Source: Psammoneis japonica
Lineage: Eukaryota
DNA length: 64,000 bases
Assembly: GCA_008632985.1 (NCBI GenBank)
Contig: QPGO01000027.1
Coordinates: forward strand, 124,001-188,000
Direction: 5' to 3'
The position numbers and the translations under genes were made by a program. The number at the start of each line of letters is the position of its first letter. The first letter of the stretch is position 1. Shown here piece by piece: positions 122 through 44,160 of this stretch. A model generated the notes under the pieces. It did no database searches and was not told where the DNA came from. It worked only from the letters and a program-made list of their open reading frames with translations.

Positions 122-412
122 GATTGTGTATAGTGATATGGTGGGAGAAACGCTATGTACCAGCGTCGCTGGAAGGGATGTGTGTCGTTGACGACGACGG
201 TTGCTGTCAGAGATCCTTCGCCGCCGCCGGCATGGTGTGTTGTGGTGTTGGGTGTTGCTGATTTTTAGGGTTTCTGGCGCGCTTATCATACTTTCAAGTA
301 CAAATAAAATTTATGTTTGATGTCATCACCAATTAACGATTCAGATAATTCAGTCGTGATCCGAGATCAAGCAAGTCGTGCCAATGACCTGAGCTAAAAT
401 CACCTCTCCACT

Positions 413-770
413 CACACAAACATCATGGTTGACATCATGACCCCTGACCCAACAATGCCCTCACTGTTTGCAAGTCCAAGTAATGCTGTCAACAACAACG
501 TGACAATTGTGAACATGCATCAAGCTTGGCAGCAACAGCCCTTTGTAAAGCATCAGGACACTCGCCACACAAACACCATGGTTGACATCATGACCCCTGA
601 CCCAACAATGCCCTCACTGTTTGCAAGTCCAAGCAATGCTGTCAACAACAACGTGACAATTGTGAACATGCATCAAGCTTGGCAGCAACAGCCCTTTGTG
701 AAGCATCAGGACACAAGAACAAGGCAGCAACAGCCCTTTGTGAAGAGCATCGGGGACACAAGAACAAACA
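413..770 (+). repeat. 153-bp tandem duplication plus a short partial third copy
   Basis: ATGGTTGACATCATGACCCC starts at 425 and 578; GGCAGCAACAGCCCTTTGTGAAG recurs near 723. Confidence 0.95.
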
Positions 771-1143
771 AGTTGAGCCGCCTTCTCCAGGAGCAAGTTG
801 GTTTCAGACAAAACAGAGTTTTTTTAAATGTCTCTGAGAGAGCTGAGACTCATGTTTTTTTGTCATCAGCACATTTTGTTGGGTGGTGGATGTGTGCATT
901 GGGACTGCTTTCACCCCCCACCAAGAGAAAAAAGCAAGAAACTTTTTGGCAACAACCCACAAGGTTTTCTGTGCATTTCCACGTGCCACACACTTTTGCA
1001 CGAAATTTGTGCAAGACAACTGAGCTCCAGAACACTGACATTTTTTTAATGCAAGCTCACACTTTTTGCTGGGCCACTGAGGAAAGCACAATGGTTAAAA
1101 TTTTGTTTCTTGGCACACAAACAAACAAATCTTTTTCACTTGT

Positions 1144-3396
1144 TTTAAGCCACCTGTGTGGCTCATTCTGTCTGCATTTTAAACACTTGTTGAGAACAGC
1201 TTCATTTGTTTTTTTCCTTGCATTTGTCAGATCTTAAGTTGCCTGTGTGGCTCACACAAGTGTTTTCTCTGTGTGCTGCAGTTTGCCACTTGCAGAGCAA
1301 AAATCAGTGAAATCGATTCCGTGATGTGCTTGACAAGTGCAAGACCCAGACAAACAACCCAGGTGAGTGTGAACAAGTTGATTGTTGCCACAGTTGCTTT
1401 TAAAAATGATGTGAATGTCACTCAATGCATTGTTCATGCAACATGGCACCACACAGGCGCAGTCTTGTTTTGGTTTCTTGGAAGAAGGGTGGGCTCCAGT
1501 TTTGGGTGGTTGAGATCTGCACTTGTGAGCAAAAAAGAAAAAAGCATGAACAATGTGCACCCTCGGTGTGACACACTCATCTCATTGATGATGTGAATGA
1601 TGCTCACAGATTTTGAACAGACAACTGTGTGTCTGGAATGTCTTTTCGGAAGCCAGATTTGGGTGCCACCTTTTGGAAAGCAACGGATGAAGCACGATCA
1701 AGTTTGCAAAAGTCACAAGTGACTTCAGTCATTTTCATGGGTGTCTCAGACTTCTGTTGTGTGCAAGTGACACTCACAGGGCACAGTGCAACAGTGAGGG
1801 GGTTGTTGCAAGTGTTTTCTTCACCATCCTGCTGTTTGACATGATGACTGCACTCATTCTGGCTGGTGCAAGGGACTCTTGGGGCATTGTTTGTCTTTCT
1901 TGGTTGATTTGTCCCATTTCAACAACTGTGTTGTTCAACAACAATGACAGGTGAACCAGACTGGGCATTTCAGTGGAGAAATGAACATTGTGCATGTGTT
2001 TTCTTGGCATGCTAGAGTTTGCCAGTTGAAACTGTCATGGCATGTTGCATCTCCTTGAGGTCATTGCGTGCAGCTCCCAGTCATGCAATCAGCTGTCAAC
2101 AGCACTGGTCTACACCACTTTGTCAAATTGCCCATCAAAAAATCTGTTCTCACAATTGCAGCAATGATTTCCAGCACTTGGAGCCTTGCAGAGAACTGCC
2201 TGCACACACCAAGTTCCAGTTCAATCCTGCTGTTGGGCTTGAATGTCACCAATTGCGTTTGTTGACTCTTGCCCTTGCTTGGTCACATTCAATGTCCTTC
2301 TGCACAGCAGATGATTCCTGGCACCTGCGCTGTTGCAAAGCCTTCAATCTGCAATGTTGACAAACTGCACATTGTTCTGCACAAGCAACATGATGAAAAT
2401 GGTTGTCCAACAGAAGTGCTCCAGCCAGCTGTTGTCAATTGCCTGTCACTGGCAGTGTTTTCTGCAGTTTGGTCCCAATCTTAGAAGCATTGTCCACTTG
2501 AAAATGCCTCTTCCCAGATGATGTGAACAGTTTGAGCTGTGCTCTGAATCAATTTGGTTGGAGCTGGCACACTCACATGATCCGAGGTCCAACTGCTTGC
2601 GGCTCCTCAGGAACTTGCACAATTTTTTGACACCTGACAACTGCACAGGATCATCTCATGCAGCCAGTGTTGGAGGGTGTCATTTGAGCCATTGATTGAA
2701 ACTTTTGGATGGTTTGGTGCAGACATTCAGTTGATTTGATTGTTGCAAATGATTGTGACAAGCAAGGATTGCCACGCTTGCTTTTGTTTTTGACACAGAA
2801 AACAAAACCAAAGAAAGACCTTGTGCCCTTCTTCATCATCTTTGTCAGATGTGCCATCCAAGTCATGGGTGTCTGCAGAAGGCATTCCACTCTTCTGGGC
2901 TGCCTTCAAAACATTTGCTGCAGCGTCTGATGCAGAAGAAACAAAGATGTTGAGTGAAAAGTTCAGAAGATGATTAAAGGCATTGAATGAAGATGCCTTT
3001 CTTTGGGGCACCCACCTTGTGATCATGATGATGTTTCTTCAATGTGCTCTCCAGGTGTTTTTTGCACTTGGTGTCAAATGTTGCCACCGCTGCAACTGAT
3101 CCCATGGTCGGCTTGAGTTGTGTTGCGTGTCTGTGTTTTGGAAAGAAAAAGAATTGATTTTGTGGGTTGTCAGCGTTTTTGGCAAAAATCACAGTGTGAC
3201 AGTCATGCAGGTGTGGCTCAAAAGCATTGTGACTCATTTTGAACTCTTGTTAAGAACAGCTTCATTTTATTTCCTCCAGATGTCAGATCTCTGCCTTTGT
3301 TTTAGTTGCCTGTGTGGCTCATTTTGTCCTCATTTTAAACCTCTCAAGAACAGCTTTGTTTGTTTCCTTTTCCTTCCATTTTGTCAGCTCTCTGCC
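1144..3396 (+). repeat. Dispersed ~100-bp degenerate repeat (copies at about 1144-1256, 3212-3305, 3305-3396)
   Basis: Shared CCTGTGTGGCTCATT...CATTTTAAAC...AGAACAGCTT...TGTCAG motifs. Confidence 0.75.
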
Positions 3397-4319
3397 TTTG
3401 CTTTGCTCTGTCTCTGCTGCACCTGTCCTTTTTTCCTGCTGGACACTGCACAACTCATCCTCCAATCTAACATCCACCAACAACGATGGTGTGCCCCTGT
3501 CACAATCCACTTTGTTGTCCTGGTTGGATGTGTGACAATGACAACAACAACAACAACAAGTGTGCTCTCTAAAGGCATTTTCAAAGGCATCTCCAGTGTT
3601 CTTCTTTCTCCATTTTGGCCTGAACCCTGATGATGACTTTGGGAAGCACACCCCCAGTGCTGCAGGAAGAGAAGCACTGGGAAGAGAGCAGGGAGAGCAG
3701 CTTAGATTTAAACTTGCCAAGGGATGGTCTTTGCATCACATGAGGCAAGCAATGGCACTGATGCTTGGAAAGCCACTGCCATGTGACAGAGACTGGGAAG
3801 ATTCTTTCATCTTCTTCCCTGGCTGTCACCATCACCGCAAAGGAAGACAATGGCCAGAGTTCATCAGCACGCATCCTCAGTGTTCCAAGGGGTTCATTCT
3901 GGCATTGAGTTTGATGACATGTCTTGGTGTCTTCTCCAATTGGAGCAACAGGCTTGCCTGGTGGAAGGTGCATGATGCACAGAGCAATGCCGCTTGAGAA
4001 GCTAAAATGGAGCATGTGGTGGTGTCCCCATGTCCCAGCAAACATTTGCCAAATGCCAAGCCAGATCATCATCATCACCACAAATGCACGTTGGCTTGAC
4101 TTGCTGCCTGCACAACATGCAACCCAAATGCACTCAGTCTGCATTTGTTGAGTGGGATGGCCCAATTGAGGAGGTGTCTTTTCACTCTTGATTTGGGAAG
4201 CTGCAAGCCTTGTCTTGGGCAGCAGCAGTCCCTTGTGTGATTCCTTCACAAACAAGAAGATCCCCAGCTGCACAAGGTGTGGAAATGTGAGGCCCACAGA
4301 TGTGGCAAAGGAGGTGTGC

Positions 4320-5411
4320 AGTTGTCTTAGGATGGCATTGGAGGACTCCAGTGGGTTGCCAGGGACATGCCAACAACCATGGTTGGGGAGCAAATGCCTT
4401 GGCTTGTGTCAATGCAGCACCTTGTCTCTCTGACATGACTGGCTTTGGCCCAGCCAGCCAACCTGCAGAGACAATGGAAATGTCTGTGCAAGGCAACAGT
4501 GCAAGTGCTCCATTGTCTTGGGAAAACATTGGATGACTCCATTGGGTCCTGGAGGATGCAATGACAACAATGGCTGGGAAGCAAAGGCCTGCAGAGACAA
4601 AAAAAACCATCTGTGCAACAGCGCAAGTGCTCAGTTGTCTTGGGATGGCTTTTGCATTGGATGACTCCATTGGGTCCCAGAGGATGAAATGACAACAATG
4701 GTTGGAAAGCAAAGGCCTTGTCTTGTGTCAATGCAGCCCTTTGTCTCTCTGACATGACTGGGTTTGGCCCTGCCACCCCACCTGCAGAGACAAGAAAACC
4801 ATCTGTGCAACAGTGCAAGTGCTCAGTTTTGTCTTGGGATGGCTTTGGTGACTCCATTGGATCCCAGAAAAGCCAACAACAACAATGGCTGGGAAGCAAA
4901 GGCCTTGGCTTGTGTCAATGCAGCCCTTTGTCTCTCAGACATGACTGGGTTTGGGTCCTGCCACCCCAGCTGCAGAGACAAGAAAACCATCTGTGTGCTC
5001 AGTTGTCTTGGGATGGCTTTTGGTGACTCCATTGGATCACAGAGGACACAACAACAACAATGGCTGGGAAGCACAGGCCTTGTCTTGTGTCAGTGCAGCA
5101 CCTTGTCTCTCTGACAGGACTGGGTTTGGCCCAGCTAAAAGAGCCAATTTGCAAGATGGACAAGGGAACCACCTGTGCAACAGTGCAAGTGCTCAGTTGT
5201 CTTGGGATGGCTTTTGGTGACTCCATTGGATCCCAGAGGAGCCAACAACAACAATGGCTGGGAAGAAAAGGCTTCATCTTGTGTCAATGCTGACCTTGTC
5301 TCTCTGACATCATGACTGCTGGGTTTGGCCCAGCCAAGAACCAATTTGCAAGAAAGACAAGGGAGCCATCTGTGTGACAACACAAGCACTCAGTTGTCTT
5401 GAGATGGGCAC
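4320..5411. repeat. Degenerate tandem array of ~130-195 bp units, left part (interrupted by the LTR element)
   Basis: About six recurrences of GACTCCATTGG..CAACAATGGCTGGGAAG..TGTCTCTCTGACATGACTGG..CAGTTGTCTTGGGATGG. Confidence 0.9.
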
Positions 5412-5687
5412 TGACAGGATTTGAACAGGATTTGGATGCGCGCGAAGTATCGCGCGCTGTTTAGTTTACCGCACACAGTTTTGTGTGCTTTAGTTCCGCG
5501 CGTTTGCGCGCGATGTAGTTTGCTTTCGAGCCACAAGGCTCACAAGAATAATAACAGTAGCCCGATTATACCGACCCACACGTCTTTCGGCTCCTGTAAC
5601 GGTCTCTGAGCGGAGACTCATCTGCTATTTAGACAGCAGTAAGGAGTTATTGTTTGAATTCTTGCCATTTGCCTTCAATTTCTGTCA
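5412..5687 (+). repeat. 5' LTR (276 bp)
   Basis: 270/276 identical to 12243-12518; TG...CA ends. Confidence 0.98.
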
Positions 5688-5704
5688 GATTAACAGTCTT
5701 GCTC
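5688..5704 (+). promoter_or_regulatory. Candidate primer-binding site complementary to the anticodon arm of tRNA-Asn(GUU)
   Basis: GATTAACAGTCTTGCTC directly follows the LTR; reverse complement contains GACTGTTAATC; no TGG-type 3'-CCA PBS. Confidence 0.55.
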
Positions 5705-6626
5705 ATTGTCAACCCATTGAGCAACCGCCATCGTCGTCGTTGATTTACCAACGACGCTATTTCAATTCTACGTGGACCTCCGTATATATTCTACATACAT
5801 CGGCAAGTCTACGCGCATCCAATACCAGGGCATCGGCAGGAAGTTAACGTCACCGTCAAGTCTCCTTACCGCTGGATATCTGGATTGATTATACTACCTT
5901 TGATCGCTGAAGACATACATTCAACGGTCATATCCAAGTCTATCCTTGATCCTCATCCCTTGATATACCTATTCATCGGTTAACGGTCAAGAATCCTACA
6001 TATTCAAGGATCTTCGTCGCTGAAGACATATATATATATACATATCTTCACGGCCAAGAACCTGTACACACTCTTCGGACTGCGGTTTTGCCACCACTCT
6101 ACAAGCACACCGAGTCCATTGTACCTGATCTACCCCGGACTACTGGTGCTCTACAGTTCTACTAGGTCCACGAGGACGACTGTGAGAGCAAGCAGCCGTG
6201 ATCACAGCCTGCGTTGGGGCGAGGGTGCTTTCCCGCGTTTGTTCGTTCGTCCACAGCGCCTGACGCCTGCGTCAACTGGCCAGCCTGATCGGGAAATCCA
6301 ACCGACATAAAATAAGAACGGTTCGGGGGTCTTGTCCACCTCCAGTCAGCTCACCTGCAGGGGCTTGCAACCCGCTACTCCGCTCGCAAGCAACCCAAAG
6401 CGCCACTGGCTGCGGGTTCGGACGTGCCGGCACAACTCTACGGACAGGATGGGAAGTTTAGCACTTGACAACGAACGGGATGGCAAAGCCCGGCGACTTC
6501 TGATTTTAAGATAGTTCAAGATTTCAAGTCAAGTCTGTTTCAAGTCAAGTCTGTTCTCACCCGAGTTTCAAGTCTGCCCTCGCTTCCCAATCAGAATTGA
6601 TTGTCCTGACACCACTTTTGTCTGCC

Positions 6627-7975
6627 ATGGTTCTCACTCGTCAGCAACAAATCGATGGTTTCGAGCACGTTGTTGGAACCGTGCTTGCCCAAGGTGCTGG
6701 GAGTCCTCTTCGTTTGGCTTTGGCCCAAGACGGCACGGACTCGTGTCAGGAACTGTTCACGTTCACACCGTCCCAAATCGACTCGCTTGTGTGCGACAAC
6801 GGCACCAATGTGATCCCTTTGCCTCGTGGTTATAAGAACATGTTAGCAGCACTGGTTGGTCTGCACATTGTCAAAGCACACAAAGGTCTTGACGTTGCCA
6901 ACGACTCCTCTTTGTTCACGCATGATGAGTTCCTTGCCTGCCGCCTCAGCCCGGACTGCATGTCCTCTGTGTCCATCGGCAGCTCACCCCTTGCACCTCC
7001 ACATGTCACCAACCCGACCAAGGCACGCGACCCGGTGCGAGACTTCAAGCGAGGCATCAAGCGTGATCCCACCGCTTTCACGGCTCTCAAATCCGGCAAG
7101 CAGTGGCACACTTGGCACACCTCACTTGTGGCACAAGCCCATGCCCAAGACGTCGAGTGCATTCTAGACTCGTCGTACAAACCGACCAGCCCCGAAGACA
7201 AACTGCTCTTTGCTGAACAGCAAAAGTGCATGTTCGCCGTCTTCGAACGCATCCTTCTCACCGACAAGGGCAAGGCTCTCATTCGCGAAAATGTGGGGTC
7301 CTCTGACGCACAGACCGTCTGCCGCTCCTTGTCTGAACACGCGCTTGCCTCCACCCGTGCATCCATCGAGTCCTCCACCCTGCTCACGTGCCTCACCACC
7401 GCACGTCTTGGTGATGGCACTTGGAAAGGTCCGACCCACGGGTTCATCCTTCATTGGCAAGATCAGTTGCGCAAGTGCGAGGCACTCATCCCCGCCAGCG
7501 ACCACTTCTCTGAAGGACAGAAGCGCGTCATGCTCGAGAATGCCGTGCACCCTGTCGAGGAACTCCGTGCTGTCAAGAACCAAGCTGATCAGCATCGTGC
7601 GCAGAGTGGCAAGAGCCTCACATGCGATCAACACTGTGGCTTGCTCCTCTCCGCGGCAGCTCAGTGCGACAGCACGTTTCAACCCAAGACGACACCTCGA
7701 GCTCCCCGACGCGCCATGTGCGCCCACGACGTCCACTCCGAGGAACCGTCCGACGATGTGTTCTACGACATTGACAGTGACGTTGACGTCCTTCAAGCCA
7801 ATGCTGCCTGCACCCGTGGTCCCAGCCTCACCGGTGTCCAATGGAGACGTCTCCCTCCCAACCACCAACGGCTCTGGGATTCGTTGCCCGATTCCTCCAA
7901 GGCGATCATCCTTGAGCACTCTCGCCCGCCTCCCCCAACCCGCGAGCCAGCAACTGCCATGAGTCTGTTACGGCC
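6627..7975 (+). CDS. gag: Copia Gag-like region (real frame probably switches to the pol frame near 7916-7975)
   Basis: ORF 6597-8318, ATG at 6627; FKRGIKRD and VMLENAV motifs typical of diatom copia Gag as I recall them; many Cys at likely Tyr positions. Confidence 0.85.
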
Positions 7976-10900
7976 AACCTTCACGACCAACACCTTGGGA
8001 GTGACGGTGATGTCAACTTGTCCAACACGACTCCTGCTGACTGTGGTGACTCCGCCACACATGTGGACGCCACTTCGGACAATCCCATCCTGGCGCACCT
8101 CACCAAGCGCAAGCCACTGCCACCCGGTGATCTGCAACGTCTGTTGTCTCCTAACCAAGCCCCCAATGCCAGTCGACCGGGGCCATCCGCTGCTTCCTCT
8201 ACCCCGCCAGCTTCTGCAGATAACACAGAACTTAACGGCCGCACTTGCCGCCGCGTTAACAACCACAATGTCATTTGCTCTGCCTCTGCTCATCGCTCCA
8301 CACGCACTGGCGCTCTAGTCGATCGTGGGGCCAACGGCGGCATTTCTGGCGACGACGTTCGCGTCATCGCACGCACCTCTCGCCAAGTCGACGTTCAGGG
8401 CATTGACGATCATCAATTGGTGGACATCCCCATTGTCGCCGCTGGTGCCGTCATTGAGACCCAGCGTGGTCCCGTCATCGCCATCCTCCATCAGCACGCA
8501 CACACGGGAAAGGGCAAGACCATCCATTCCTGCAGCCAGCTCGAATGGCACAAACAGGATGTCAACGATCGCTCTGTCAAGGTGCCCAATGGCTTGCAAC
8601 GCATTGCCACTCCTGATGGCTATGTCATCCCCATTGACATCAAGGCTGGCCTGCCTCATGTTGCCATGCGCCCTTGCACTGACGCCGAATGGGACACCCT
8701 GCCCCATGTCATCCTCACCGGTGATGACACATGGGACCCTTCCGTCCTCGATCACTCTGTCACTGACGACGACCAGTGGTGCGACGCGATCTCTGACCCA
8801 CAGGACGATCCCACTGCCAACCCATTTGACGAATGCGGCAACTGCCGTCACCGTGTCGTTGTCAACGAGACCATCTTGTCCGCTTCCTTGTCTGACGATC
8901 ACGCGTCCGCCCTCGATGATCACCTCATTCCGAACGACGACGTGTTCTACGAGTGTCATCTGCATGCGAGTGACCCCACGGGCGTTGACGTTCCACCTCC
9001 GGAGCGCACTGTGAAGCCCAAGGACCCCCCCTTCGAGTCTCTTCGGCCTTGCTTTGGCTTCCTGCCTGCCGATGCGGTCCGTCGTACTTTTGACTGCACC
9101 ACGCAGTGCGCCCGCATGCCCGCCGGCACACACCTTCGCAAGGCCTGCAAATCACCCAACCCCGCCCTTAATGTGCACCGCCGCAATGAGCCTGTCGCCA
9201 CTGACACCATTTGTGCCGACACCCCAGCCGTCGACTCTGGTTGCACCAGCGCCCAACTGTTTGTTGGCACCGAGTCTACCGTCACTGACGTCTGCGGCAC
9301 TAAGACGGACAAAGAGTTTGTCAACACACTCGAGGATCAGATCCATGAACGTGGTGCACCATCCAAACTCATTAGCGACCGTGCTCAAGTTGAGATCAGC
9401 AACAAGGTGCTCGGGATCCTGCGCGCCCTCTTCATCTCCAGCTGGCAAAGTGAGCCTCACCAGCAACACCAAAACTTTGCCGAACGTCGACACCAGACCG
9501 TGAAGCGCATGGCGAACACTGTCATGGACCGTTTTGGTTCGCCCGCCCACACATGGCTCCTGGCGCTCATGTGCGTGTGCTTCACACTCAACCACACAGC
9601 GTCCCCACGTCTCCACTGGCGCACGCCCCTCGAGACTCTCACTGGATCCACCCCGGACATCAGCCCATTGCTTCGCTTTCACTGGTGGGAACCAGTGTGC
9701 TTCCACCTCGATGACTCCGATTGGCCGTCCGAATCCCGTGAGTTGCGTGGACGCTTTGTTGGCATTGCTGAGCACGTCGGTCACCAGATGACCTTCAAGA
9801 TCCTCTCTGACGAGACTCAAAAGATCCTCTGCCGGTCCAACGTTCGCTCCGCTGCCCCCGATCCTGCCGTTCGAAACCTGCGTCTTGATCCTCCTGATGG
9901 GGAGCCACCTGAACCCATCATCAAATCTCGCCATGACGACAACCCCGTCGATTCTACTGATGGGGAGATCAGGACACCCAAGATGCCAGTTTTCGATCCG
10001 CAAGACATCATTGGACGTACCTTCCTCATGCAGCCACAAGAGGATGGACAACGCCACAGAGCTCGCATCGTCAAGGCCGTCGAAGACCACGAATGGAAAG
10101 TGAACGGCAATCCCGAGCTCACTAAGTTCGTCTGCTCTGTCAACAATGACGAATACGAGGAAGTCCTTGCTTGCAATGACATCATGAATCACATTGAGCA
10201 AGAAGACGAAGACACTGCCATTTGGAAATTTCGACGCATCGCATCACACGAAGGACCTCTGAAGCCTCACGACCCAACCTGGAAAGGCTCAAGCTGCAAC
10301 ATCATGCTTGAATGGGAAAGTGGGGAGATCACGTCCGAGCCTCTTGCCATCATCGCCAAGGACGACCCCGTCACCTGTGCCATCTATGCACGAGAGAACG
10401 GACTCCTCGACACGGATGGCTGGAAGCGGTTCCGCACTATCGCGAGGCGCCAAAAGAAGCTATTTCACATGGCCAACCAAGCCAAGCTTCGCTCCTTCCG
10501 CACTGCACCTCGCTACAAGTACGGATACGAAGTTCCCCGGAACTACAAACACGCCATGTCACTGGACGAACGCAACGGCAACCGCAAGTGGGGAGACGCA
10601 ACTAATCTCGAGATGGACCAACTCGACGAATACGAAGTCTTCCATGACTGCGGGCCCTTCAAGTCTTCCACTCCTCCTGCGGGACACAAGAAGATCCGAG
10701 TGCACCTGGTGTTCGACGTGAAACACGACGGTCGCCACAAGGCACGACTCGTAGCCGACGGGCACCTCACGGATGTACCTGTTGACAGTGTTTGCTCCGG
10801 AGCAGTCTCCCTCCGTGGCCTTCGGCTGATGATTTTCCTGGCCGAACTCAACGAGCTGGAGACATGGGCCACCGACATTGGCAATGCCTGCCTTGAAGCC

Positions 10901-12295
10901 ACCACCAAGGAGAAGCTTTACATTGTAGCTGGACCCGAATTTGGCAAACTCGAGGGACACATCCTTGTCATCCACAAGGCACTGTATGGACTTCGCAGCT
11001 CCGGTCTCCGCTGGCACGAGCGCTTCGCCGACTGCCTGCGAGCTGAAGGCTTCTTCCCCTGCCGCACCGAACCCGACATTTGGATGCGCAGGAACGGCGA
11101 CCACTATGAATGCACTGGCGTTTATGTGGATGACCTCGCCATTGCCATGAAGGACCCTCAATCTTTCATCGATACTCTCACGGAAAAGTGCAAGTTCAAG
11201 CTCAAGGGTACGGGACCCATTGAGTTCCATCTGGGTTGCGACTTTTCCCGGGACCCCGACGGAACCTTGTGCCTGTCTCCGCGCAAGTGCATCGAGCGCA
11301 TGGTCGACAGCTACGCCCGATTGTTTGGGGAGAAACCTGCCACCAACGCCCTGTCACCTCTAGAGAAGGGTGACCACCCCGAACTGGACACTTCCGAACT
11401 ACTGGGACCCGATGGCATTCACAAGTTCCAGTCTCTTGTTGGTTCACTCCAATGGGCAGTGTCCCTTGGTCGAATTGACATTGCCACGGCTGTCATGTCA
11501 CTCTCTAGCTTCCGAGCTGCGCCCCGTCAAGGCCACTTGGATCGTGCCAAACGCGTCTGTGGGTGCCTCTCCAAGATGCGACATGGTGCTCTCCGCGTTC
11601 GTACGGAAGAGCCCGACCATTCGGATCTCCCTGCTCCGGCCTATGAATGGATGCATTCCGTGTATGGTGAAGCAGAAGAGATGATCCCGAAGGACGCTCC
11701 ACCGCCCCTTGGCAAGTTCGTCACTACCACCCACTGCGTCGATGCAAACTTGCACCATTGCATGCTCACCGGACGCTCTGTCATGGGAATGCTCCACTTC
11801 CTCAACAAATTCCCGGCTGATTGGTTCTCCAAGAAACAAGCCACCGTGGAGACTGCAACCTACGGATCTGAATTTGTTGCCGCAAGGAATTGTGTCGAGC
11901 AGATTGTCGACCTGCGCATCACCCTGCGCTACCTTGGCGTCCCGATCCGTGATGTTAGTCACATGTTCGGTGACAACAAGTCGGTTGTAGACAGTGCCAC
12001 CATCCCGCACTCCAAGTTACACAAGCGACACACCGCACTGTCGTTCCACCGTGTGCGTGAGGCAATTGCCTCTGGTTACCTTGAGTTCCACTTCATCGAG
12101 GGCTCCCGCAATCCTGCTGACATTCTCAGCAAGCATTGGGGTTGCTCCCAAATCTGGGACCTTCTCCGCCCTCTCATGTTCTGGAACTTCATCCCATCCG
12201 AAGTCGAATCTGTTTCTGTGGCTCCTCAAGCAAACTGGGGAGTGACAGGATTTGAACAGGATTTGGATGCGCGCGAAGTATCGCGCGCTGTTTAG
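7916..12295 (+). CDS. pol: Copia Pol: protease, integrase, reverse transcriptase, RNase H (probably inactivated)
   Basis: LVDRGANGG (protease), ISDRAQVE and SEPHQQHQNFAERR (integrase), HKARLVADG, KALYGL, YVDD (RT), GDNKSV and NPADILSK (RNase H). Confidence 0.95.
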   Translation, partial: ALSPASPNPRASNCHESVTANLHDQHLGSDGDVNLSNTTPADCGDSATHVDATSDNPILAHLTKRKPLPPGDLQRLLSPNQAPNASRPGPSAASSTPPASADNTELNGRTCRRVNNHNVICSASAHRSTRTGALVDRGANGGISGDDVRVIARTSRQVDVQGIDDHQLVDIPIVAAGAVIETQRGPVIAILHQHAHTGKGKTIHSCSQLEWHKQDVNDRSVKVPNGLQRIATPDGYVIPIDIKAGLPHVAMRPCTDAEWDTLPHVILTGDDTWDPSVLDHSVTDDDQWCDAISDPQDDPTANPFDECGNCRHRVVVNETILSASLSDDHASALDDHLIPNDDVFYECHLHASDPTGVDVPPPERTVKPKDPPFESLRPCFGFLPADAVRRTFDCTTQCARMPAGTHLRKACKSPNPALNVHRRNEPVATDTICADTPAVDSGCTSAQLFVGTESTVTDVCGTKTDKEFVNTLEDQIHERGAPSKLISDRAQVEISNKVLGILRALFISSWQSEPHQQHQNFAERRHQTVKRMANTVMDRFGSPAHTWLLALMCVCFTLNHTASPRLHWRTPLETLTGSTPDISPLLRFHWWEPVCFHLDDSDWPSESRELRGRFVGIAEHVGHQMTFKILSDETQKILCRSNVRSAAPDPAVRNLRLDPPDGEPPEPIIKSRHDDNPVDSTDGEIRTPKMPVFDPQDIIGRTFLMQPQEDGQRHRARIVKAVEDHEWKVNGNPELTKFVCSVNNDEYEEVLACNDIMNHIEQEDEDTAIWKFRRIASHEGPLKPHDPTWKGSSCNIMLEWESGEITSEPLAIIAKDDPVTCAIYARENGLLDTDGWKRFRTIARRQKKLFHMANQAKLRSFRTAPRYKYGYEVPRNYKHAMSLDERNGNRKWGDATNLEMDQLDEYEVFHDCGPFKSSTPPAGHKKIRVHLVFDVKHDGRHKARLVADGHLTDVPVDSVCSGAVSLRGLRLMIFLAELNELETWATDIGNACLEATTKEKLYIVAGPEFGKLEGHILVIHKALYGLRSSGLRWHERFADCLRAEGFFPCRTEPDIWMRRNGDHYECTGVYVDDLAIAMKDPQSFIDTLTEKCKFKLKGTGPIEFHLGCDFSRDPDGTLCLSPRKCIERMVDSYARLFGEKPATNALSPLEKGDHPELDTSELLGPDGIHKFQSLVGSLQWAVSLGRIDIATAVMSLSSFRAAPRQGHLDRAKRVCGCLSKMRHGALRVRTEEPDHSDLPAPAYEWMHSVYGEAEEMIPKDAPPPLGKFVTTTHCVDANLHHCMLTGRSVMGMLHFLNKFPADWFSKKQATVETATYGSEFVAARNCVEQIVDLRITLRYLGVPIRDVSHMFGDNKSVVDSATIPHSKLHKRHTALSFHRVREAIASGYLEFHFIEGSRNPADILSKHWGCSQIWDLLRPLMFWNFIPSEVESVSVAPQANWGVTGFEQDLDAREVSRAV
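12232..12242 (+). promoter_or_regulatory. Short polypurine tract upstream of the 3' LTR
   Basis: AAACTGGGGAG abuts the TG of the 3' LTR. Confidence 0.6.
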
Positions 12296-12518
12296 TTTGC
12301 CGCACACAGTTTTGTGTGCTTTAGTTCCGCGCGTTTGCGCGCGATGTAGTTTGCTTTCGAGCCACAAGGCTCACAAGAATAACAACAGCAGCCCGATTAT
12401 ACCGACCCACACGTCTTTCGGCTCCTGCAACGGTCTCTGAGCGGAGACTCATCTGCCATTTAGACAGCAGTAAGGAGTCATTGTTTGAATTCTTGCCATT
12501 TGCCTTCAATTTCTGTCA
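12243..12518 (+). repeat. 3' LTR (276 bp)
   Basis: Matches the 5' LTR except six TA versus TG/CA sites. Confidence 0.98.
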
Positions 12519-12770
12519 GGCACAAGAGACTTCATTGGGTCCCTGAGGAGGCAAGAACAACAATGGCTGGGAAGGAAAAGCCTGGTCTTGGGCCAACACA
12601 GCTCCTTTTCTTCTGTCTGATGTGATTGGCTTGCTTTGGCCCAGCCACCTCACCTGCAGAGACAAGGGAGCTTTCTGTGCCATGTGACAGTGCAAGTGCC
12701 CAGTTGTCTTTGGATGGCCTTTTGGGTGCCTTCATTGTGTCTCAGGGGAGCCAACAACAACCAGGGCAAA
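12519..12770. repeat. Continuation of the degenerate tandem array after the LTR insertion
   Basis: GACTTCATTGGGTCCC..CAACAATGGCTGGGAAG..CACCTGCAGAGACAAG..CAGTTGTCTTTGGATGG resumes the unit broken at 5411. Confidence 0.88.
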
Positions 12771-27468: not shown

Positions 27469-27579
27469 AGTTGAACAGAGATTTTCTGTTAAAAACAATC
27501 ATGTAAGTATTATTATATATTAACATAAAATATATACATTGTTAATCGCTGGCCGCCACCAAATTTTCAAAATCTAAAA
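27469..27579 (+). repeat. ~110-bp direct repeat, TA/CG-intact copy
   Basis: AGTTGAACAGAGATTTT...GCTGGCCGCCACCAAATTTTCAAAATCTAAAA shared with 32069-32172. Confidence 0.85.
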
Positions 27580-27669: not shown

Positions 27670-30600
27670 GTGCCACTTATGTATCCTCGCAGACTCCGGA
27701 AGTCATGTTGCAACAAGAAGTGTCGTTGCAGCAAATGACGCAACAAGTGCACGTGAGATCCGGCGGGGCGAGACAGCCCGCCAGAATTTCGCCGACTGGA
27801 GCACCTTCACGCTCGCAAAAGTCGTTCAAATCTCCAGAGAGGCCCGTCATTGCAAGCCACAAGAAGTCTTAACACGAGAACACGGAGTGACAGGTGAGAA
27901 TGGGCAATGACGAGAATGAGTCGGGATCACGAAGCAGTGAGTCCTGCACTCACCCAGTGAAGGAATGAGAGCCAAGCTGTCAGGGACTGCACCAGTCAGA
28001 GGGTTGTCATGCAAGCAGAGTTCTGCGTTTGAACAAAAGGATTCCCGTTGTGAGTTGATGGACGTCCAATCTACCAATCCACAACAAGGAACTTCAGGAT
28101 AAAAGCACTTACGATGTAAGCTGGAACATTTTCCAAGGTCCCGGGGTGTGGTTCCTGACAGGCGATTTGAAAACAAGCCAAGTTTTCTCAGCTCAGAATG
28201 TTTCCAATGGACGACGGCATTGTACCGGTCAGCTGGTTCCCCGCAAGTTCTACCCACTGTAGTGCTGCGGATGGCGTTGTTGAAAAGAAACTCTCCAGAT
28301 TTCCTGAGAGACGATTGGCGATTGCGTAAAACCCAAATGACGTGCCTCGGTTTGCGGAAAAGTCTGGAATGGTTGAATTGAGACAACAATTGAACCCAAC
28401 ATCAAGTCCTTTTAACAAAGGAAGATCTGCAATGGCCTGTGGGATGCTTCCACTGAAACTGTTGTGCGACATGTCAAGTTCCGCAAGCTGGACAAAATTG
28501 CCAATTTCTGTGGGCAGTGTTCCATGAAAATCATTCTTCTCCATGTGCAAGCATTTGAGATTATTCAGAAGACCAATCTCGGTTGGCAGGCTTCCAGAAA
28601 ACTTGTTGTCGCTGATGTTCAGCATCGTGAGATCAATCAACAGACCTAACTCAGATGGAATCGAGCCTGTTGTTTCGTTTCCGAACAACGTCAAATGCTG
28701 GATCTGCGTGAATCGTCCAATTACTTCGGGTGCAGAACCAGAAAGACTGTTTGCAGCTAGTCTCAGCAGCTGAAGAGAGGGCGGAGCAGAACCGAAAAAG
28801 CTCTCAAGATGTCCCGAAAGCTCATTTCCGTGGAGCCACAAGTGAATAAATGATCTTGGTTTCCCAGAAAGTTGGGCAAAGAACCGGTCAAGGAATTGTC
28901 ATTAAGGTGCAGAACCCGAAGGAAAGGCAGATTCGCCAGCGCTTGAGGGATTGTCCCTTGTAGATGATTCTGGCGCAGAGACATCATCGTCACATTTGAC
29001 AGCTTTCCAAATTCGGTCGGAACATCTCCTGCAAGACGATTGCCGCTCAAAAACATCTCCTCGAGCCTCGCACTCCCGATTTCGCTAGGTGTCGTCCCCG
29101 TGAAATCGTTGAATCGAGCGTCGAGCCATCTGAGCTCGGTCAATTTACCAATGTCACTTGGTGTTGCCGAATTCACAATGTTTGAATGAAGATCAAGACA
29201 TTGCAAATTCGTGAAGTCGCCGACATGACTAGGGAGACTGCCTGCAAGGGCATTGTCGAACAACGTCAGAGTGGTTAGAGAATGCGGCGTGGCTTTGAAG
29301 AAATCAATCAAGTTTCCTGATGGCCCACATTTCCGTCAGCCTTGAAAACTTGCAGGCGTTCGAGGTTTGAATCAAAGATTGGCAGAGATCCCGTGAACTT
29401 GTTGTTGGAAACCTCCAACCGAACCAAGGCAGCCGGAGCAAAAGCTGGGGGCGCATCAAGTCGGCCAAAAAGTTGGTTGTCTGCCAAATGCACGGTCTGG
29501 AGATTTGGGGACGTGAAAAGCGGTGGCAATGCATTGGTCAATGTGTTTCCGGTTAAGCCCAATTCTTCAAGGTTCACTGTTTCAAAAAGCTCAGAAGGCA
29601 GTTTCCCGTTCAATCGACAGTCCATGCAACCGAAGGACCGGAGTCTTGAAAGGTTCCCAATGTTGGCAGAGATGGTTCCACCAATGTTGTTTCTGCCCAG
29701 CCACAGCAGCTCGAGGCTTGGCAGTGAGAATGTGGAATCTGGGACAGTCCCCTCCAGGTAGTTCGAACAAGCATCGAAGAGTGACAAGTGGGACAGGGCG
29801 CCAATGGAGGATGTGATTGAGCCTTCGAGAGAATTGCAGCTCACGTTTGTCATTTCAAGCATGGACAAGTGACCGATCTCGTCCGGAAGCAATCCCGTCA
29901 AATTGTTTGAACCTGCAAAGAGGACAACCGTGATGTGGAAAGGCTTGCCAGGCATTCGTCATTTTGCAGCTCCAAGTGACAGAGCCCTTGCACATTGCAT
30001 TACTTGCCAAGTGCAACCTTCGATGCGAAGCCTTGGCTGTCACAAAAGATGCCAGAATCTGTGCCGTCATTCCACTGGCACATGCTGGACTCGGACAGGA
30101 AAGAGAACTGATCACGCCAATTATCTCCGACGGAAATAAAGTGCAACAACGCAAAAATGTGATGCTGTTGGATCCCTGTTTCCGGATCATTGTCGGGGTC
30201 GACAAGTGCAGAGTCATTGTGTGCTAACCACGTGGCAGCTTCGCACTGAGGGGATGAAGAATCCAGAAGAAGATCCGCTCCTGAAATGGGTGACAGCACA
30301 CGGACGAATTTGTCAGGGACAGCAGGCTCCGGAACTGGCCCATCGTCCTTCTGAAGACTAAAGACGACAATCAACACGACCCCGACAATGACCAGAATAA
30401 ATGAGGCAAGAATCATCATGAATTTTCTGTTCTTGAATGAACAGAACTTCTCTGGCGGGACAATGTCTGCCACCAGAGTGTCTTTCAACATGTTCTTTTT
30501 TGTCTCTTCGACAACATCACTCTCACTCCGAACCACTTTGCTGGCATTAACAATCACCGTTTCTGGTGAATCATCATCATCTTCAGAACTTGGTGTGGTT

Positions 30601-31187
30601 GCATTGTCCACAATGACGGGGTCTCCAGCTTTGGCATCAACGTCAGTGTTGCCGGACCCTTGAACAAAATGGGCCCCTGGCTCTGAAGTGTGTTCGTTGA
30701 CAGCACGCACCGCTGTGGTTTCAACGGCAGTTGATGGGTTCGTAGATGGTGCATCTCTTGGCAGTGCAGACTTGGGGACCGCTTGTTCCCTTCGCTCTTT
30801 GGTTCTTCTGTGACAATCCTTGACCTGTTCATCAATTGTCGGTGGAAGAAGCTTCTCGTTCAAGCCGCGACTTGTCTTCTTTTTCATCTTGTGCCGTCTT
30901 TCGTCGCATGTTGATGTCAAAAGTGTCATCGCCCCTGACCTTCTCATTCCTCTAGCTGTCTCTGTTGCATCAGATTTCTTTTCCGGGAATGTTTCTTCTT
31001 CTTGGGGTGCGCATTTCGTTTCAGGAAACTCTTCCGCAAAGTTGTGCCCTCTGAATGCCGTGGCACCCACTTCGTTCGACTTGACTGAAGCCATGCCATG
31101 TGAAGTCTCTGGCGTGCTGTGCCATTTTGGCATGGGTGGGGGCTGCAGTGGTTTAAGGTCCTCCCTGTGCGGTGACTGTTTCTTCAT
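27670..31187 (-). pseudogene. TM-anchored LRR receptor-like protein, frameshifted and TpA-depleted
   Basis: Low-complexity N-terminus, TM helix, LRR cap (C.W..GIFC), many L..N.L.G.IP repeats; frameshifts near 29310, 28845 and 28200; His/Cys at Tyr positions. Confidence 0.85.
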
Positions 31188-31552
31188 CCTCGTAGCAGCA
31201 ATCTTGTTCGCACACGTTGCTGAGATCGCAGGAAAACGCAGCACAGCCACAACAAGCTTTCGACTTTTGCCTGAGAAGAATGCAAATTTTCTTGTGCGAG
31301 GGTTTTTACCTGCCTCTCTCTCTCTTTCTCTCTCTCTTTCTCTGTTGATGAAAGAAATGGGATGAGCGATCCTGTTGTAAAAAAGATTGGGTTCGGATTC
31401 ATGAATGAACTTGCTTCACTTCCGCTGTCACTTCTGCATTTTTTTGGAAGCAGGTTCTGACCAACTCGACTCAAGCAATGCGGGAGTGACCTGGATGCCT
31501 TTAACCACCTGTGGCACTCCAGGCCAATCGTCAGGTCAATCGCCCTCTGTCA

Positions 31553-31558
31553 CTCTCT

Positions 31559-31597
<39 letters not shown>

Positions 31598-31623
31598 TTT
31601 CTCTCTCTCTCTCTCTCTCTCTC
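31553..31623. repeat. (CT)n microsatellite (others at 31313-31342 and 39879-39909)
   Basis: Directly visible. Confidence 0.95.
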
Positions 31624-32068
31624 TGCCAGTGTCTGACGTGCTCTCTTCCAGGATTTGACAAACAACTGATCGAGGCAAAACTCATCAAAGTCACCCTCCA
31701 GCAAAAAACCAAAACGGAGCAGCTTCAGGCACCTGATCACATGCTGGATTGTTTTGGGGCGGCAGTCAAAGGGATTTTTGGTGCTGTGATCCATGTCAAA
31801 GAACGTGTCCTTCCTGCAAGGAAAAGCACTTGGTGGGAGCGGTTTTTGTCCTTTTCTTCTTGGGTGCGGGGGCTGCCTCCTGAGCGGCGTTTTGTTTCTC
31901 ATGGGCAGCCACCTGATTGGAACTTTGCTGCTTGTCAGCATTGCATCCATGGGCAGTGGCTGGTCCATGAAATCTTTTGCTTCCACTGGCTGTCGCCCCA
32001 TTGGATGGTGAGCTCTCTTGTCTTTTCCTGTGTTGCACACCAACGAACAAACAACATTGAGCTGGGGC

Positions 32069-32172
32069 AGTTGAACAGAGATTTTGTGCAAAAGTGCATC
32101 AATGAAAGTGTGTTGATGTGAAATGTGTTCATTGTCAATTGCTGGCCACCACCAAATTTTCAAAATCTAAAA
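32069..32172 (+). repeat. ~110-bp direct repeat, converted copy
   Basis: Aligns to 27469-27579 with TA->TG/CA and CG->TG/CA substitutions. Confidence 0.85.
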
Positions 32173-32399
32173 TTGAAGAAATCAAACAAGTGTGCCACCT
32201 GTGGCATGATTTGCCTGAAATGCTTGTGGAAAAGCACAGCATTCCTGAATCATTTTCACGTGCTTTTAGATCTTCTGGCAGAAGCAAGTCATCACGCAGC
32301 TTTTTTCACAAAAAGTTGTCTCGCTTGCAAACAGTCCATGTTGTGCAAGGAGCAAAGATCGTTCACCATGACTGTTCTTCTTGGTGAGTGCTTTGTTGC

Positions 32400-33174
32400 A
32401 TGGAAGGTGCTGCAATGTTTGGTGTCCTTGACGGTGATGCGCCACACAAAGCTCGACCTTGTTCCAGAGCTGAGTGATGGACATGCCAGTGGCTGTGTCA
32501 ATCTGATCATTGTCAATGTGAAGAAGGTAAAAATGAGCAAGGCCAATGCCAAACTGAAGCTTGGAAACTTCATTGGGGGGGCCGTCCATCCCAAGATTGA
32601 AAAGACCATTTCCAAGGCGATTGTCAAGGCTTTTCTGTCTTTCCTTCAAATGGGCACAAAATCTTTCCCCTTGCAGGATTTCATTGTTGATGTGGACTTG
32701 GGTGGAGAAATGGGCGCTGAACGCTGTGCAAAGAACATCAAGTGTGACCACAAAGGCATCCAATTTCAAGCGCACAGCAACTGGATCCCTGATGTTGAAG
32801 TCTGGTGGTCAGACAATTGGATCGTTCCAAGTCGTTTCAAGTTTGAGAGTCATGGGACAAAAAGGAACACCTCTGAATCCCCGCAGGTTGGGGAGTGTTT
32901 CATCTCTTGGCACAATGTGAACAAGTCACTGGAAGGATGTCTCAACAGCATCAACAGAAACGGTGACCACACTGTCGAAGATCTCAAGTTCTTCCACCCC
33001 GAGGACGATGGTGGTTCAAGCAACACAAAGATCAAGGTGTTTGCCATGATCGACTCACAAAAGCTTCATTTGGCGGTGCAACTGGATGATGGACACATGA
33101 CTGGAAAAGATTGGCGCAGACCGCGCGGCGCGCCATCTTTTCGTCGCCTTTTTCGAGGACAACAGACAACATAG
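32400..33174 (+). pseudogene. Protein-like ORF relic of unknown family
   Basis: Part of the 349-aa ORF 32125-33174 with globular-looking composition but no Tyr, in TpA-depleted DNA. Confidence 0.35.
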
Positions 33175-41258: not shown

Positions 41259-44160
41259 ATGAGTGTCTCTTCGGTAGATTCCTTGGCTGATTCTGGTTTC
41301 GAGGACAACATTGAAATGAAGGCTGAAAGTCGAGAACAGAGTCCGCTCATCAAGAGGAGTTACTCACCACGACATTATGAACCAGTGCCACGAAGAGCAC
41401 CCGTTGGTGCCTTGCCCCGCGTCGATGAGGCGGATGATGAAGATGAAGAGGACCCGGTAAGTTTGTTCTAGCGGTTGATGGATGCTTATTTACGTCGTAT
41501 GCCGTAGCTGACCTTTCTGCATGTGTCAAACCTTATACATTTCTCCATAGATCTTGGAAGTTATGGATCGAATTGAAGATGAAGTAGATGGCAATCTTTA
41601 CAATGAGTTGGTACCTCTTCATGTCAAACTTGCGCTGGAAGAAAACGTGTTTGGATGGTCGCACTTGATGTCTGATATCTTCGGCCACATTATGTTTACC
41701 GCGGGGTACTATGCTGTCACATACGCGGTGATTACACAGATTTGTTGGAAGCGAAACGATGAACTGCGATGGAACATGTCTGAAGATTTCTTTAGATCCC
41801 TGAGATTATTCTTGAGCTTTCTGGCGGGCTTGTCGGGATTCCGAACTGTGAGGAGACGACGAAAGGTGTGGCTGCGAGCACCCTATGGTACACAAGAGTA
41901 TGAACGAGATGAACTTAGACGACGTCAGTCGGTGGAAGAATCCGATCGAACAACACTGTTGGGACGGATAAGACGAAGAAGAGATGGCTGGCTGGAACGA
42001 CGTGTGCAACGAAAGATTTCAAGGCAAGCAACAGATTTGAGAAACGGATGATGCGTAAGAGCGGACGCACGATGCGCGTTTTACCCCCACGGAGTGATAA
42101 CGAGTTTTCTGCCAGGGGGAGAACCTTGTCGGACGGTGACCAGAGCTTGGGATCCCTGTCTAGTATGAAGAGAAAGCCAAGATTTCGTACTGACCGGCCT
42201 TTGGGTTTAGACCAGCCGGCTGGACGCAGAGGTCACACTGGCGCCACCGAAACCATTGAGTCAATTGCGCACGATCAAATCCTTTTCAAGCCTGGTCCCA
42301 TTCTCAACATGCCATATGCACATGGAGGATTCTTTGGAGCTGCCCCTTTCATGCTGCAAATCCATACTGGATTGATATTTTACGACATTTAATGCCCGAT
42401 GTCTACGTTGAGATATCGCGGCGTGTGGTGTACGCACCAGCGCCAAACCTTATCCACTGGGCCGAAAACAATCCAGTGGTTGCCGCATATGGGACGCACA
42501 TGAATTAGAATACAACGGAAGAGTACCAAACATTGAGTGGGACGTCTTTCTTGATCCCCATCTTGTACGAAGAGTGGAATTGGTTTTAGACGAACGAGAC
42601 AAGTTTCTCAGGTCGTGTACCCCGTCGACATCAACGACGAGCGATTCTAATGCACAGGCAATAGCGACAGAAGCTGAAGCTTTCATGACACAAGGAGAGA
42701 GAACTATTTATCTTTACTACGAGGCCGAAATCCGTCGCAGGACGCAGTTGCTCGTCGACCGTATGTTGATTGCCCACGGCAATTTGACCCAGCTCATTTG
42801 GGAGCAGACTGGCATAGCCAAGAAGTACAACTTTTCCCGCATCAAGCGAACACGTCGGACGCTTGGAGGTGGTATTTATGCCAGACAATGGCTTGCCGTT
42901 TACGCTGAAGCTCTGAAAATGGGTATGTGCGACGACGACGAAGTGACAGAAACGACACAGGAAGACCGATCATTGTACTGGACAGGATCATCTGATTCGA
43001 CGTATCGACCACCGCGTCATCAGACGATGAACTCGATGTGATGACTCCAACGATGGTGCCGAGATTGGCGCTCAGACCACTGGCTGTAGCAGTTCCGAAG
43101 GCGAAGAATCAAATGTCGCGAGACTGAAGAGGAGTTCGTCAGAACCTTCTCTCGAAGATTTGAAACACCAAGATGCCCCAGCTTCCTCTATCTCCTACCA
43201 CTCCAACAAAAACATTTATCTACCACCGCTTAAAGGTGACCTCTTTCCCCCGAAATCCAGGATACCACACCCAGCAGCGAAAGAGAATTTCGTCGCAAGC
43301 ACAGCACGTCTCTCTTTGAGTTGGCGGGATCTAAATGCCCGGACACGTCACTTGCAAGCTCGATTACCATGCTGAAGAACATCATGCAGTGCAATGCGCC
43401 GATTGGGCTGTTTCTTGATATCAAGTCGCGCCATGTCTCCAAGCGGATCTGGGCGCTTGTTGTAGACGCCCTTCGCGAGGCAGGAGCACGTGTAGAGGGA
43501 GTTTGTTCTTTCTACTCTGCTGATATTCGGGTGTTAGCGACTACTGCTCGACACCGGTGAAGGAAGTGATCTTCTTCCATTCTGCCGGTGATCTGCAGCA
43601 AGCGTGCCATGACGGTAGCGTTCAACGCGGAGACACCGTTTGTTCAACGGAGGCAGCCTCCTCTGGGATTCTCCCGAGTATTCAGATCTTCCTCGATTCG
43701 AAGAACTTGTTTCTCCACATTTGACCCAATGATTGCCAAGGGCAAGTACAAGTTTCTCCCCTGCGCTCGCGTCACTAGAACTGACGGCGACACGTCCGAA
43801 TCAAAGCAGTCCGATTGCAGCACAGCCTCACACGATCGTGATCGTCTCTTGGCTGACCCCGGCCTGTACAACGGCGGCAGCACAGTCCAGTACTACAAAG
43901 AAAAGTACGGCCTTTCCATCGGATTGTACGTGCAGGAGTTTTCGATTGATGAGGCTGCATTAACATGCTCGTGAAACTTGCAAACGAGAACCAGCACATC
44001 TATAATCTTGGATTAAGTTGGGGAGGAGTAAACGGCGTACTGTCCGGGGAATCCAACCAGGAAGATTCACCAATACTGACGGCTTCTGGAATCAGAGATA
44101 TCTTGGCGCAGCTTGGGATCCATGCCTTTTCCCAAGTGAAGATCATGTCGACTGAGTTCG
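41259..44160 (+). CDS. Unknown membrane protein with several apparent frameshifts; C-terminal part weakly GDPD/TIM-barrel-like
   Basis: Chain of collinear ORFs, intron 41457-41550, GLFLDIKSR and IGLYVQE segments; normal composition. Confidence 0.55.

Follow-up and report, generated by a model that had tools for sequence, protein, structure and literature searches.

A direction-resolved, two-layer flank rule for the loss of TA steps from transposon DNA of the diatom Psammoneis japonica

The stretch analysed here (termed the window) comprises 64,000 nucleotides of contig QPGO01000027.1 of the diatom Psammoneis japonica (positions 124,001 to 188,000 of the forward strand; assembly GCA_008632985.1), and the subject of this analysis is the fate of its TA dinucleotide steps. 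Along the window, gene-rich DNA with an observed/expected (o/e) ratio of about 0.57 for TA and about 1 for CG alternates sharply with blocks in which TA o/e is only 0.04-0.12 and TG and CA are raised. One such block (396..5411, or 396-5447 by segmentation; no strand assigned) is an old, deeply converted repeat with copies elsewhere in the genome (TA o/e 0.07, CG o/e 0.12), and it includes a converted array of units of about 190 bp (4314..5407, + strand). A young Copia-type retrotransposon is inserted within this older array, which resumes past the element at 12521-12767. The element is bounded by a 5-bp target-site duplication, GGCAC (left copy 5407..5411, right copy 12519-12523), and consists of a 5' long terminal repeat (LTR; 5412..5687), two long frames (6510..12295), the second with a Pfam RVT_2 match (E 3e-25), and a 3' LTR (12243..12518), all on the + strand; over 7001-12000 its TA o/e is 0.1-0.34 per kb, with CG intact at 0.90-0.98. 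A further TA-poor block (27683..33171, no strand assigned; TA o/e 0.11, CG o/e 0.67) carries leucine-rich-repeat (LRR) frames.

The initial annotation held that the TA steps surviving between 800 and 5400 are mostly of the form YTAR (Y being a pyrimidine and R a purine), and this is what was found: 20 of the 22 remaining steps are YTAR (825, 1047, 1096, 1146, 1180, 1235, 1401, 2013, 2482, 2975, 3251, 3303, 3336, 3468, 3570, 3703, 3709, 4003, 4328 and 5136, all within 825..5137), as against 214 of 1431 in the normal blocks of the window (binomial p 5e-15). Among TG and CA steps inside the block, Y..R flanks occur in 240 of 1043 (Fisher p 4.5e-11 against the surviving TA). The two exceptions that it named, TCTACA (2109..2114, + strand, with CTAC at 2111) and TTTATT (3266..3271, + strand, with TTAT at 3268), are the only survivors that are not YTAR. 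It was likewise right that YTAR is not immune: a TTAA in the unconverted copy of a 52-bp pair (27528..27579, + strand) reads TCAA in the converted copy (32121-32172). Within normal DNA, two segments of the window, 44001-45000 and 57001-58000, have normal TA yet are unusually YTAR-rich (26/61 and 15/46).

The two LTRs of the window's element differ at six sites, at all of which the 5' LTR keeps TA and the 3' LTR has changed it (once to TG, five times to CA); otherwise they are identical. As had been noted, all six are RTA or TAY sites and none is YTAR; however, the 5' LTR holds 15 TA steps, 3 of them YTAR, so that this outcome has a chance probability of 0.18, and the six changes were rejected as proof of YTAR avoidance. 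Firmer evidence comes from 500-bp tiles drawn from the window and from 23 stretches picked beside known repeats, 147 of the 587 tiles being termed old on the basis of low CG alone. In old tiles 129 of 181 surviving TA steps are YTAR, versus 16% in normal tiles, and survival relative to normal is 0.213 for YTAR, 0.027 for mixed sites (at which one strand reads TAY and the other TAR) and 0.002 for RTAY. The check that had been proposed, depletion across NTAN contexts, shows the ten classes to be unequally depleted, with relative survival running from 0.41 for TTAA down to 0 of 943 for ATAT.

Survival cannot separate RTA from TAY; the direction of change in related copies can. The Copia relatives used for this purpose come from a search in which 40 of 469 candidates were scored; 37 regions were taken whole and, with the window copy, give 38 copies; these are the closest scored matches rather than a random draw, and two matches near contig starts were left out. 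At 247 TA-type sites the copies read TA 3520 times, TG 3191, CA 2125 and CG 9 times, with 26 single transversions, that is, 5316 transitions against 26. Each copy has converted 27-80% of its TA sites (about 60% overall), while losing 2-7% of its CG (about 4%) and singly changing 0-0.4% of other sites (about 0.2%). The same TA has been resolved to TG in some copies and to CA in others at 193 of 248 sites. Within 35 LTR pairs (L068, L088 and L091 being excluded for having a single LTR or LTRs from two elements) there are 420 differing columns, of which 280 are TA versus TG or CA, 48 are CG-type and 92 are other (many of them TG versus CA). The LTR-pair differences, the TG and CA counts and the conversion of individual copies together show a process acting on genomic DNA subsequent to insertion: TA becomes TG or CA, on either strand, through small scattered hits, and a step that has ceased to be TA changes no further. 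Same-strand changes cluster slightly at 50-100 bp (p 0.02-0.03), but no strand coordination is seen from 200 bp upwards, and long processive single-strand bursts were rejected on this ground.

These copies bear directly on two accounts that dispense with a mutator of DNA. That no special mutator exists, the pattern being due to composition, selection against TA, GC-biased conversion or assembly error, is scarcely credible. Normal DNA of the window is indeed mildly TA-poor (o/e 0.55-0.6), and three one-base gaps against a contig of run X1 are perhaps assembly errors; but a given TA has become TG in some independent copies and CA in others, conversion of about 60% stands against a background of about 0.2%, unconverted relatives exist, and the 12 letters by which window 27726-31539 differs from the run X1 contig (which may be the assembly's own sample) are all TA- or CG-type, versus no differences at all in a 4.7-kb flank with 190 TA steps. 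These differences are one-sided, the window having TA at all five TA differences and X1 having CG at all four CG differences; the gaps lie at 28199, 28846 and 29999. The other account, ADAR-type editing of element RNA or of RNA:DNA intermediates followed by reverse transcription into DNA, could draw on two A_deamin genes in the genome and on the excess of A>G on the sense strand (3191) over the antisense strand (2125). When context is fitted, however, this bias shrinks to 1.13. Changes fall on both strands, the LTRs of a single element are not alike, and the LRR block and copies of methyltransferase genes are affected as well. Moreover, the best ADAR triplet, according to the available part of PMC5137428, is UAG on the transcript strand, whereas TAG is among the slowest contexts here. 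Differences within LTR pairs, together with the symmetry between strands, largely refute this account, which is very improbable.

Resolved by strand, the preference takes a simpler form. The mean hazard in the Copia copies, read on the strand with the changing A, is 0.86 for RTAY, 1.07 for YTAY, 0.40 for YTAR and 0.44 for RTAR. The 136 mixed sites record 2183 changes on the TAY strand and 893 on the TAR strand (107 sites versus 21), and the TAY/TAR ratio is 2.23 (bootstrap 1.78-2.86). The LTR pairs alone give 149 changes in 315 opportunities for TAY versus 64 in 451 for TAR, counts that come from few distinct sites and are therefore non-independent. In a second repeat family (L050 being merged with L043), which covers the block 800-5400, the TAY strand has 112 changes and the TAR strand 51, and YTAR is kept 27 of 107 times versus 15 of 243 for other contexts. 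The differences from run X1, which are few and may reflect the assembly's own sample, give 4/23 for TAY versus 1/51 for TAR (p 0.03), while a test for YTAR on the same differences gives 1/15 versus 4/22 (p 0.63). The core rule is thus a 3-mer read on a single strand: TAY if the A strand is considered or, equivalently, RTA if the T strand is. YTAR is its symmetric shadow and survives because both of its strands read TAR. Adding the two strand hazards arithmetically predicts a mixed-site survival of 0.019 in old tiles, versus 0.027 measured; a free fit on old tiles was unable to resolve strand and was not used for it. The 4-mer was rejected as the underlying unit: no purine/pyrimidine class effect attaches to the base two positions ahead of the A.

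YTAR sites nevertheless vary widely among themselves, and a wider context bettered the cross-validated fit. At 222 isolated sites, each T two before the step or A two after it shifts the log total hazard by -0.81 +/- 0.13, with no effect on strand choice (0.14 +/- 0.16), which is set instead by TAY (1.29 +/- 0.14) and by an A two before the changing A (0.85 +/- 0.18). The second layer of the rule is therefore a hexamer-level shield, which acts on both strands alike and leaves strand choice untouched. In old tiles TTTAAA is not depleted and TCTAGA keeps 0.68. In the block 800-5400 an outer letter is present on 17 of 20 YTAR survivors versus 114 of 240 converted-type sites (p 0.002); of the two exceptions, TCTACA has both letters and TTTATT the outer T. 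The rule as fitted to the Copia copies correlates with survival over 105 hexamer classes in old tiles (rho -0.76) and, when applied to the held-out block 800-5400, gives an area under the curve of 0.915, versus 0.839 for YTAR alone. The rule as a whole, comprising TAY strand preference and outer-letter shield, is held with high confidence. Over time RTAY is lost first and mixed sites follow, leaving YTAR and above all TTTAAA and TCTAGA. The mutator with a 4-mer preference that the initial annotation proposed is well supported as to context dependence, but its unit is a one-strand 3-mer to which a hexamer-level shield on both strands is added; and its further phrase, 'as expected of an enzyme', goes beyond the data inasmuch as chemical damage and DNA shape also yield context.

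Changes outside TA speak to an origin in repair. In the Copia copies A>G outside TA occurs at 175 of 91,529 opportunities, twice the rate of C>T outside CG (77/89697). By 5' base it amounts to 59/22590 after A, 57/34789 after C and 59/34150 after G (2.61, 1.64 and 1.73 per 1000), so that AA exceeds CA plus GA 1.55-fold (p 0.008). In copies L061-L097 these non-TA changes also lean to a following pyrimidine (107/44256 versus 68/47273, p 0.0008), and may be a spill-over from the process at TA. Comparison with run X1 gave four TG/CA-versus-CG differences that hinted at CA as a further target; this was rejected, since CA is not raised in the Copia copies, and the four are read as CG decay. The raised AA and the twofold excess of A>G are what one would look for if the mutations stem from error-prone gap filling by a polymerase of the eta or iota type, placing G opposite T at TA during T:G repair after decay of 5-methylcytosine. 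This explanation can also point to the sharing of blocks by TA loss and CG loss (none of the 147 low-CG tiles has a TA o/e above 0.35) and to the raised rate with A two before, ATA being named as an eta motif in the available part of 10.1101/783118. The eta motif given there is, however, WA, yet AA>G amounts to about 0.3% per site-copy versus about 30% per TA strand (by arithmetic), or about 1% of the TA level, and AA trinucleotides are undepleted in old tiles (0.88-1.12). Furthermore, young copies have undergone TA change at about 15 times the level of their CG loss, and strand-coordinated tracts of 200 bp or more are absent. Gap filling is accordingly regarded as improbable.

Which DNA is attacked is best seen from a stretch of the block (1970..3231, + strand) for which 29 relatives were fetched, 19 unconverted and 10 converted. 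At 47 sites that are TA in the unconverted relatives the window has TA at 3, TG or CA at 38 and other letters at 6. The 19 unconverted relatives, whose mutual identity is 84-99.6% and whose age is uncertain, keep TA and are multi-copy; CG is kept in them at 1274 of 1353 sites versus 71 of 436 in the converted ones. The repeat itself, about 2 kb long (L037, reverse 669-2737, and relatives L035-L060), has no long frame in the copies translated, and is found both unconverted beside genes and fully converted. For the converted LRR block at 27683..33171 there is no close second copy in the assembly, although assemblies collapse repeats and the block may have arrived converted. Host-type gene copies are affected too: duplicated copies of a C5-methyltransferase gene (L122, L123 and L124; C301 and C297 of G000) lie in TA-erased DNA (TA o/e 0.07-0.10, CG 0.66-0.74). 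Other methyltransferase copies (L118, L119 and L125) are not in such DNA. Because multi-copy relatives stay unconverted and keep CG, while the LRR block and the methyltransferase genes are converted, targeting appears to follow a silenced chromatin state rather than copy number. Across the Copia copies conversion also depends on position, the 5' LTR being 44% converted, the 3' LTR 63% and the stretch 5690-6070 35%; the less-converted 5' LTR and AT-rich stretch behind it (5412-6070) suggest a protected promoter region.

Repeats dense in transitions at a single dinucleotide, on both strands and with genes spared, recall repeat-induced point mutation (RIP) of ascomycete fungi. RIP changes C to T and thereby creates TA. 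Here, by contrast, the dominant change is at TA and C>T outside CG is rare; and, unlike RIP, which is triggered by duplication, the process passes over multi-copy relatives and takes in a block without a close second copy. RIP was rejected on the rarity of C>T and on the unconverted multi-copy relatives. RIP depends on a methyltransferase of the RID/DNMT4 type; the genome has several PF00145 (C5-methyltransferase) genes, which may or may not include one of this type, and the available part of PMC9998398 describes the function of DNMT4 in diatoms as unknown.

The overall best explanation, to which roughly even odds (about 0.5) are given, is a TAY-preferring TA mutator of silenced DNA, for which a deaminase of the TadA/ADAT fold is the leading candidate. 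Taken part by part, adenine deamination is somewhat favoured as the cause, and the attribution to a TadA-fold enzyme is tentative. Silenced chromatin would mark the target DNA, which would also slowly lose CG, as methylated DNA does; a host zinc deaminase would convert A to hypoxanthine at a TA step opened locally within the duplex, and replication would then fix G. The letters touching the step choose the strand, an A followed by C or T being favoured and, to a lesser degree, an A preceded by AT, whereas a T two before or an A two after lowers the frequency of hits on both strands. More speculatively, this may be an undescribed genome-defence enzyme of diatoms that engages duplex TA in silenced DNA, picks the TAY strand and turns A:T into G:C (in effect a natural editor of adenine in duplex DNA, which Bigelowiella may share and which would then be old within the stramenopile-alveolate-Rhizaria (SAR) group), erasing TA far faster than methyl-C decays.

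Of the three signatures with which comparison had been suggested, namely those of TadA-derived adenine base editors (ABEs), ADAR and polymerase eta, only the first fits the main motif. TadA-derived editors are engineered and guided, act on a displaced single strand, and among 5' contexts rank the pyrimidine context CA above AA. They change A to G, and TAY, reported as their best motif in the available part of PMC10879117, is also best in the Copia copies, the LTR pairs and the second family. Unlike these editors, which edit other 5' contexts well, the process here is more than 100-fold lower in non-T contexts, with CA not second; and its outer letters shield both strands, while the check for single-strand exposure found only the weak same-strand excess described above. 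Deamination of A in DNA by a natural TadA-fold enzyme has been described for the nuclear ADAT2/3 of amphioxus (PMC10354150), but the available text gives this enzyme a preference for GAA (and, for C, TCG) and for hairpin loops rather than for TAY. The signatures of ADAR, polymerase eta and amphioxus ADAT2 thus do not fit.

Profile searches of the genome found a bacterial-type TadA (L103), an ADAT2-like gene (L106) and ADAT1-like genes, labels that beyond the profile matches are our own reading; the further deaminase families PF14437 and PF14439 matched only loci already known. The A_deamin matches (L130/L133 and L131/L132) represent two separate genes with HAE and PCG motifs, one of which may be extra to the tRNA-editing ADAT1. 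At L105 (313-1785, - strand) a TadA-like deaminase is fused in a single frame to DIOX_N and 2OG-FeII_Oxy. No match for an AAG/MPG glycosylase turned up in a profile search whose control matched in 4 of 14, a result that speaks for deamination. The silicon transporter family gives 24 genome matches (best 697 bits), which mark the genome as that of a diatom and include three units in one frame of 1511 residues at 226311-230342 of G000:C38.

A number of points weigh against this explanation. The deaminases found resemble an ordinary tRNA set and are candidates only, and the L103 TadA has a hydrophobic N-terminal leader and an RNA-type aspartate motif. The genome has an endonuclease V gene. CA does not come second among the 5' contexts, as it would for an ABE, amphioxus ADAT2 prefers another motif, and a both-strand shield should not be expected of an enzyme that reads only single strands. 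The link to methylation is indirect: TA conversion is not significantly correlated with CG loss by region (rho 0.48, p 0.16, n 10) or by copy (rho 0.22, p 0.19), and distance to the nearest CG is without effect. The Copia copies, besides being the closest scored matches, share some descent (161 background variants are shared and 324 single, mostly in small groups). Finally, A>G on one strand and T>C on the other are indistinguishable in sequence.

This last point admits the main rival, namely a lesion on the T of RTA (oxidised, O4-alkylated or aminated T, made by an enzyme or as a side reaction in silenced chromatin) that would mispair with G or be taken for C. T lesions of these types do mispair; a preference for RTA on the T strand would look no different from one for TAY on the A strand; the both-strand shield suits a duplex-binding, base-flipping protein; and the genome offers several C5-methyltransferase genes, one of them beside a chromodomain frame, as well as the deaminase-oxygenase fusion. 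On the other hand, Tet_JBP has no match in the genome (though its control was silent too), the near purity of the transitions and the match of TAY to a known A deaminase favour A, and no mutator of this kind was found in the literature searched. A lesion on T is therefore considered unlikely, though less so than the other rivals.

Hypermutation of TpA itself is already known: in the chlorarachniophyte Bigelowiella natans, integrated DNA of nucleocytoplasmic large DNA viruses and virophages undergoes TpA to TpG/CpA change, and in mutation-accumulation lines this proceeds at a rate near 6e-7 per site per generation and is active in some lines only (bioRxiv 10.64898/2026.01.13.699255, a preprint, to the available part of which the following comparison refers). 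Both processes change TpA to TpG/CpA only, on both strands, and locally in foreign or silent DNA with neighbours spared (here as sharp blocks, silence being inferred); the present process, like that in B. natans, may not need high copy number; both entail long-term loss of TA with gain of TG and CA; and an A deaminase is proposed for both. The line-dependent activity in B. natans may be set beside the range of conversion among Copia copies (0.27-0.80). Unlike B. natans, the present case concerns a diatom and transposon copies, with near-total TA erasure and CG decay alongside. A word search of the preprint's main text finds none of 'diatom', 'trinucleotide', 'context' and 'flanking', although its supplementary tables could hold flanks. 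Neither TA hypermutation in diatoms nor the flank rule is described in the literature searched, most subscription papers lying outside it; the available text on mutation accumulation in P. tricornutum (PMC6604790) reports no TA hypermutation, and no look-alike stretch occurs in the other genomes compared.

What is new here, then, is the direction-resolved two-layer flank rule and its occurrence in a diatom and in transposons, through which a second SAR lineage is added to the known range; B. natans, the only printed case found, stops at the dinucleotide in the text available and names no proven enzyme. The rule provides a quantitative test for candidates, which should show a TAY/TAR preference of about 2-4 fold, activity more than 100-fold lower in non-T contexts and near immunity of TTTAAA; by counting against ADAR, polymerase eta and an amphioxus-type ADAT2, this fingerprint narrows the search for the cause. 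In practical terms, dating by LTRs and comparing GC content will give misleading results in genomes of this kind if TA sites are retained. And if the process is indeed due to a natural deaminase for duplex DNA, this would bear both on genome defence and on the design of base editors.

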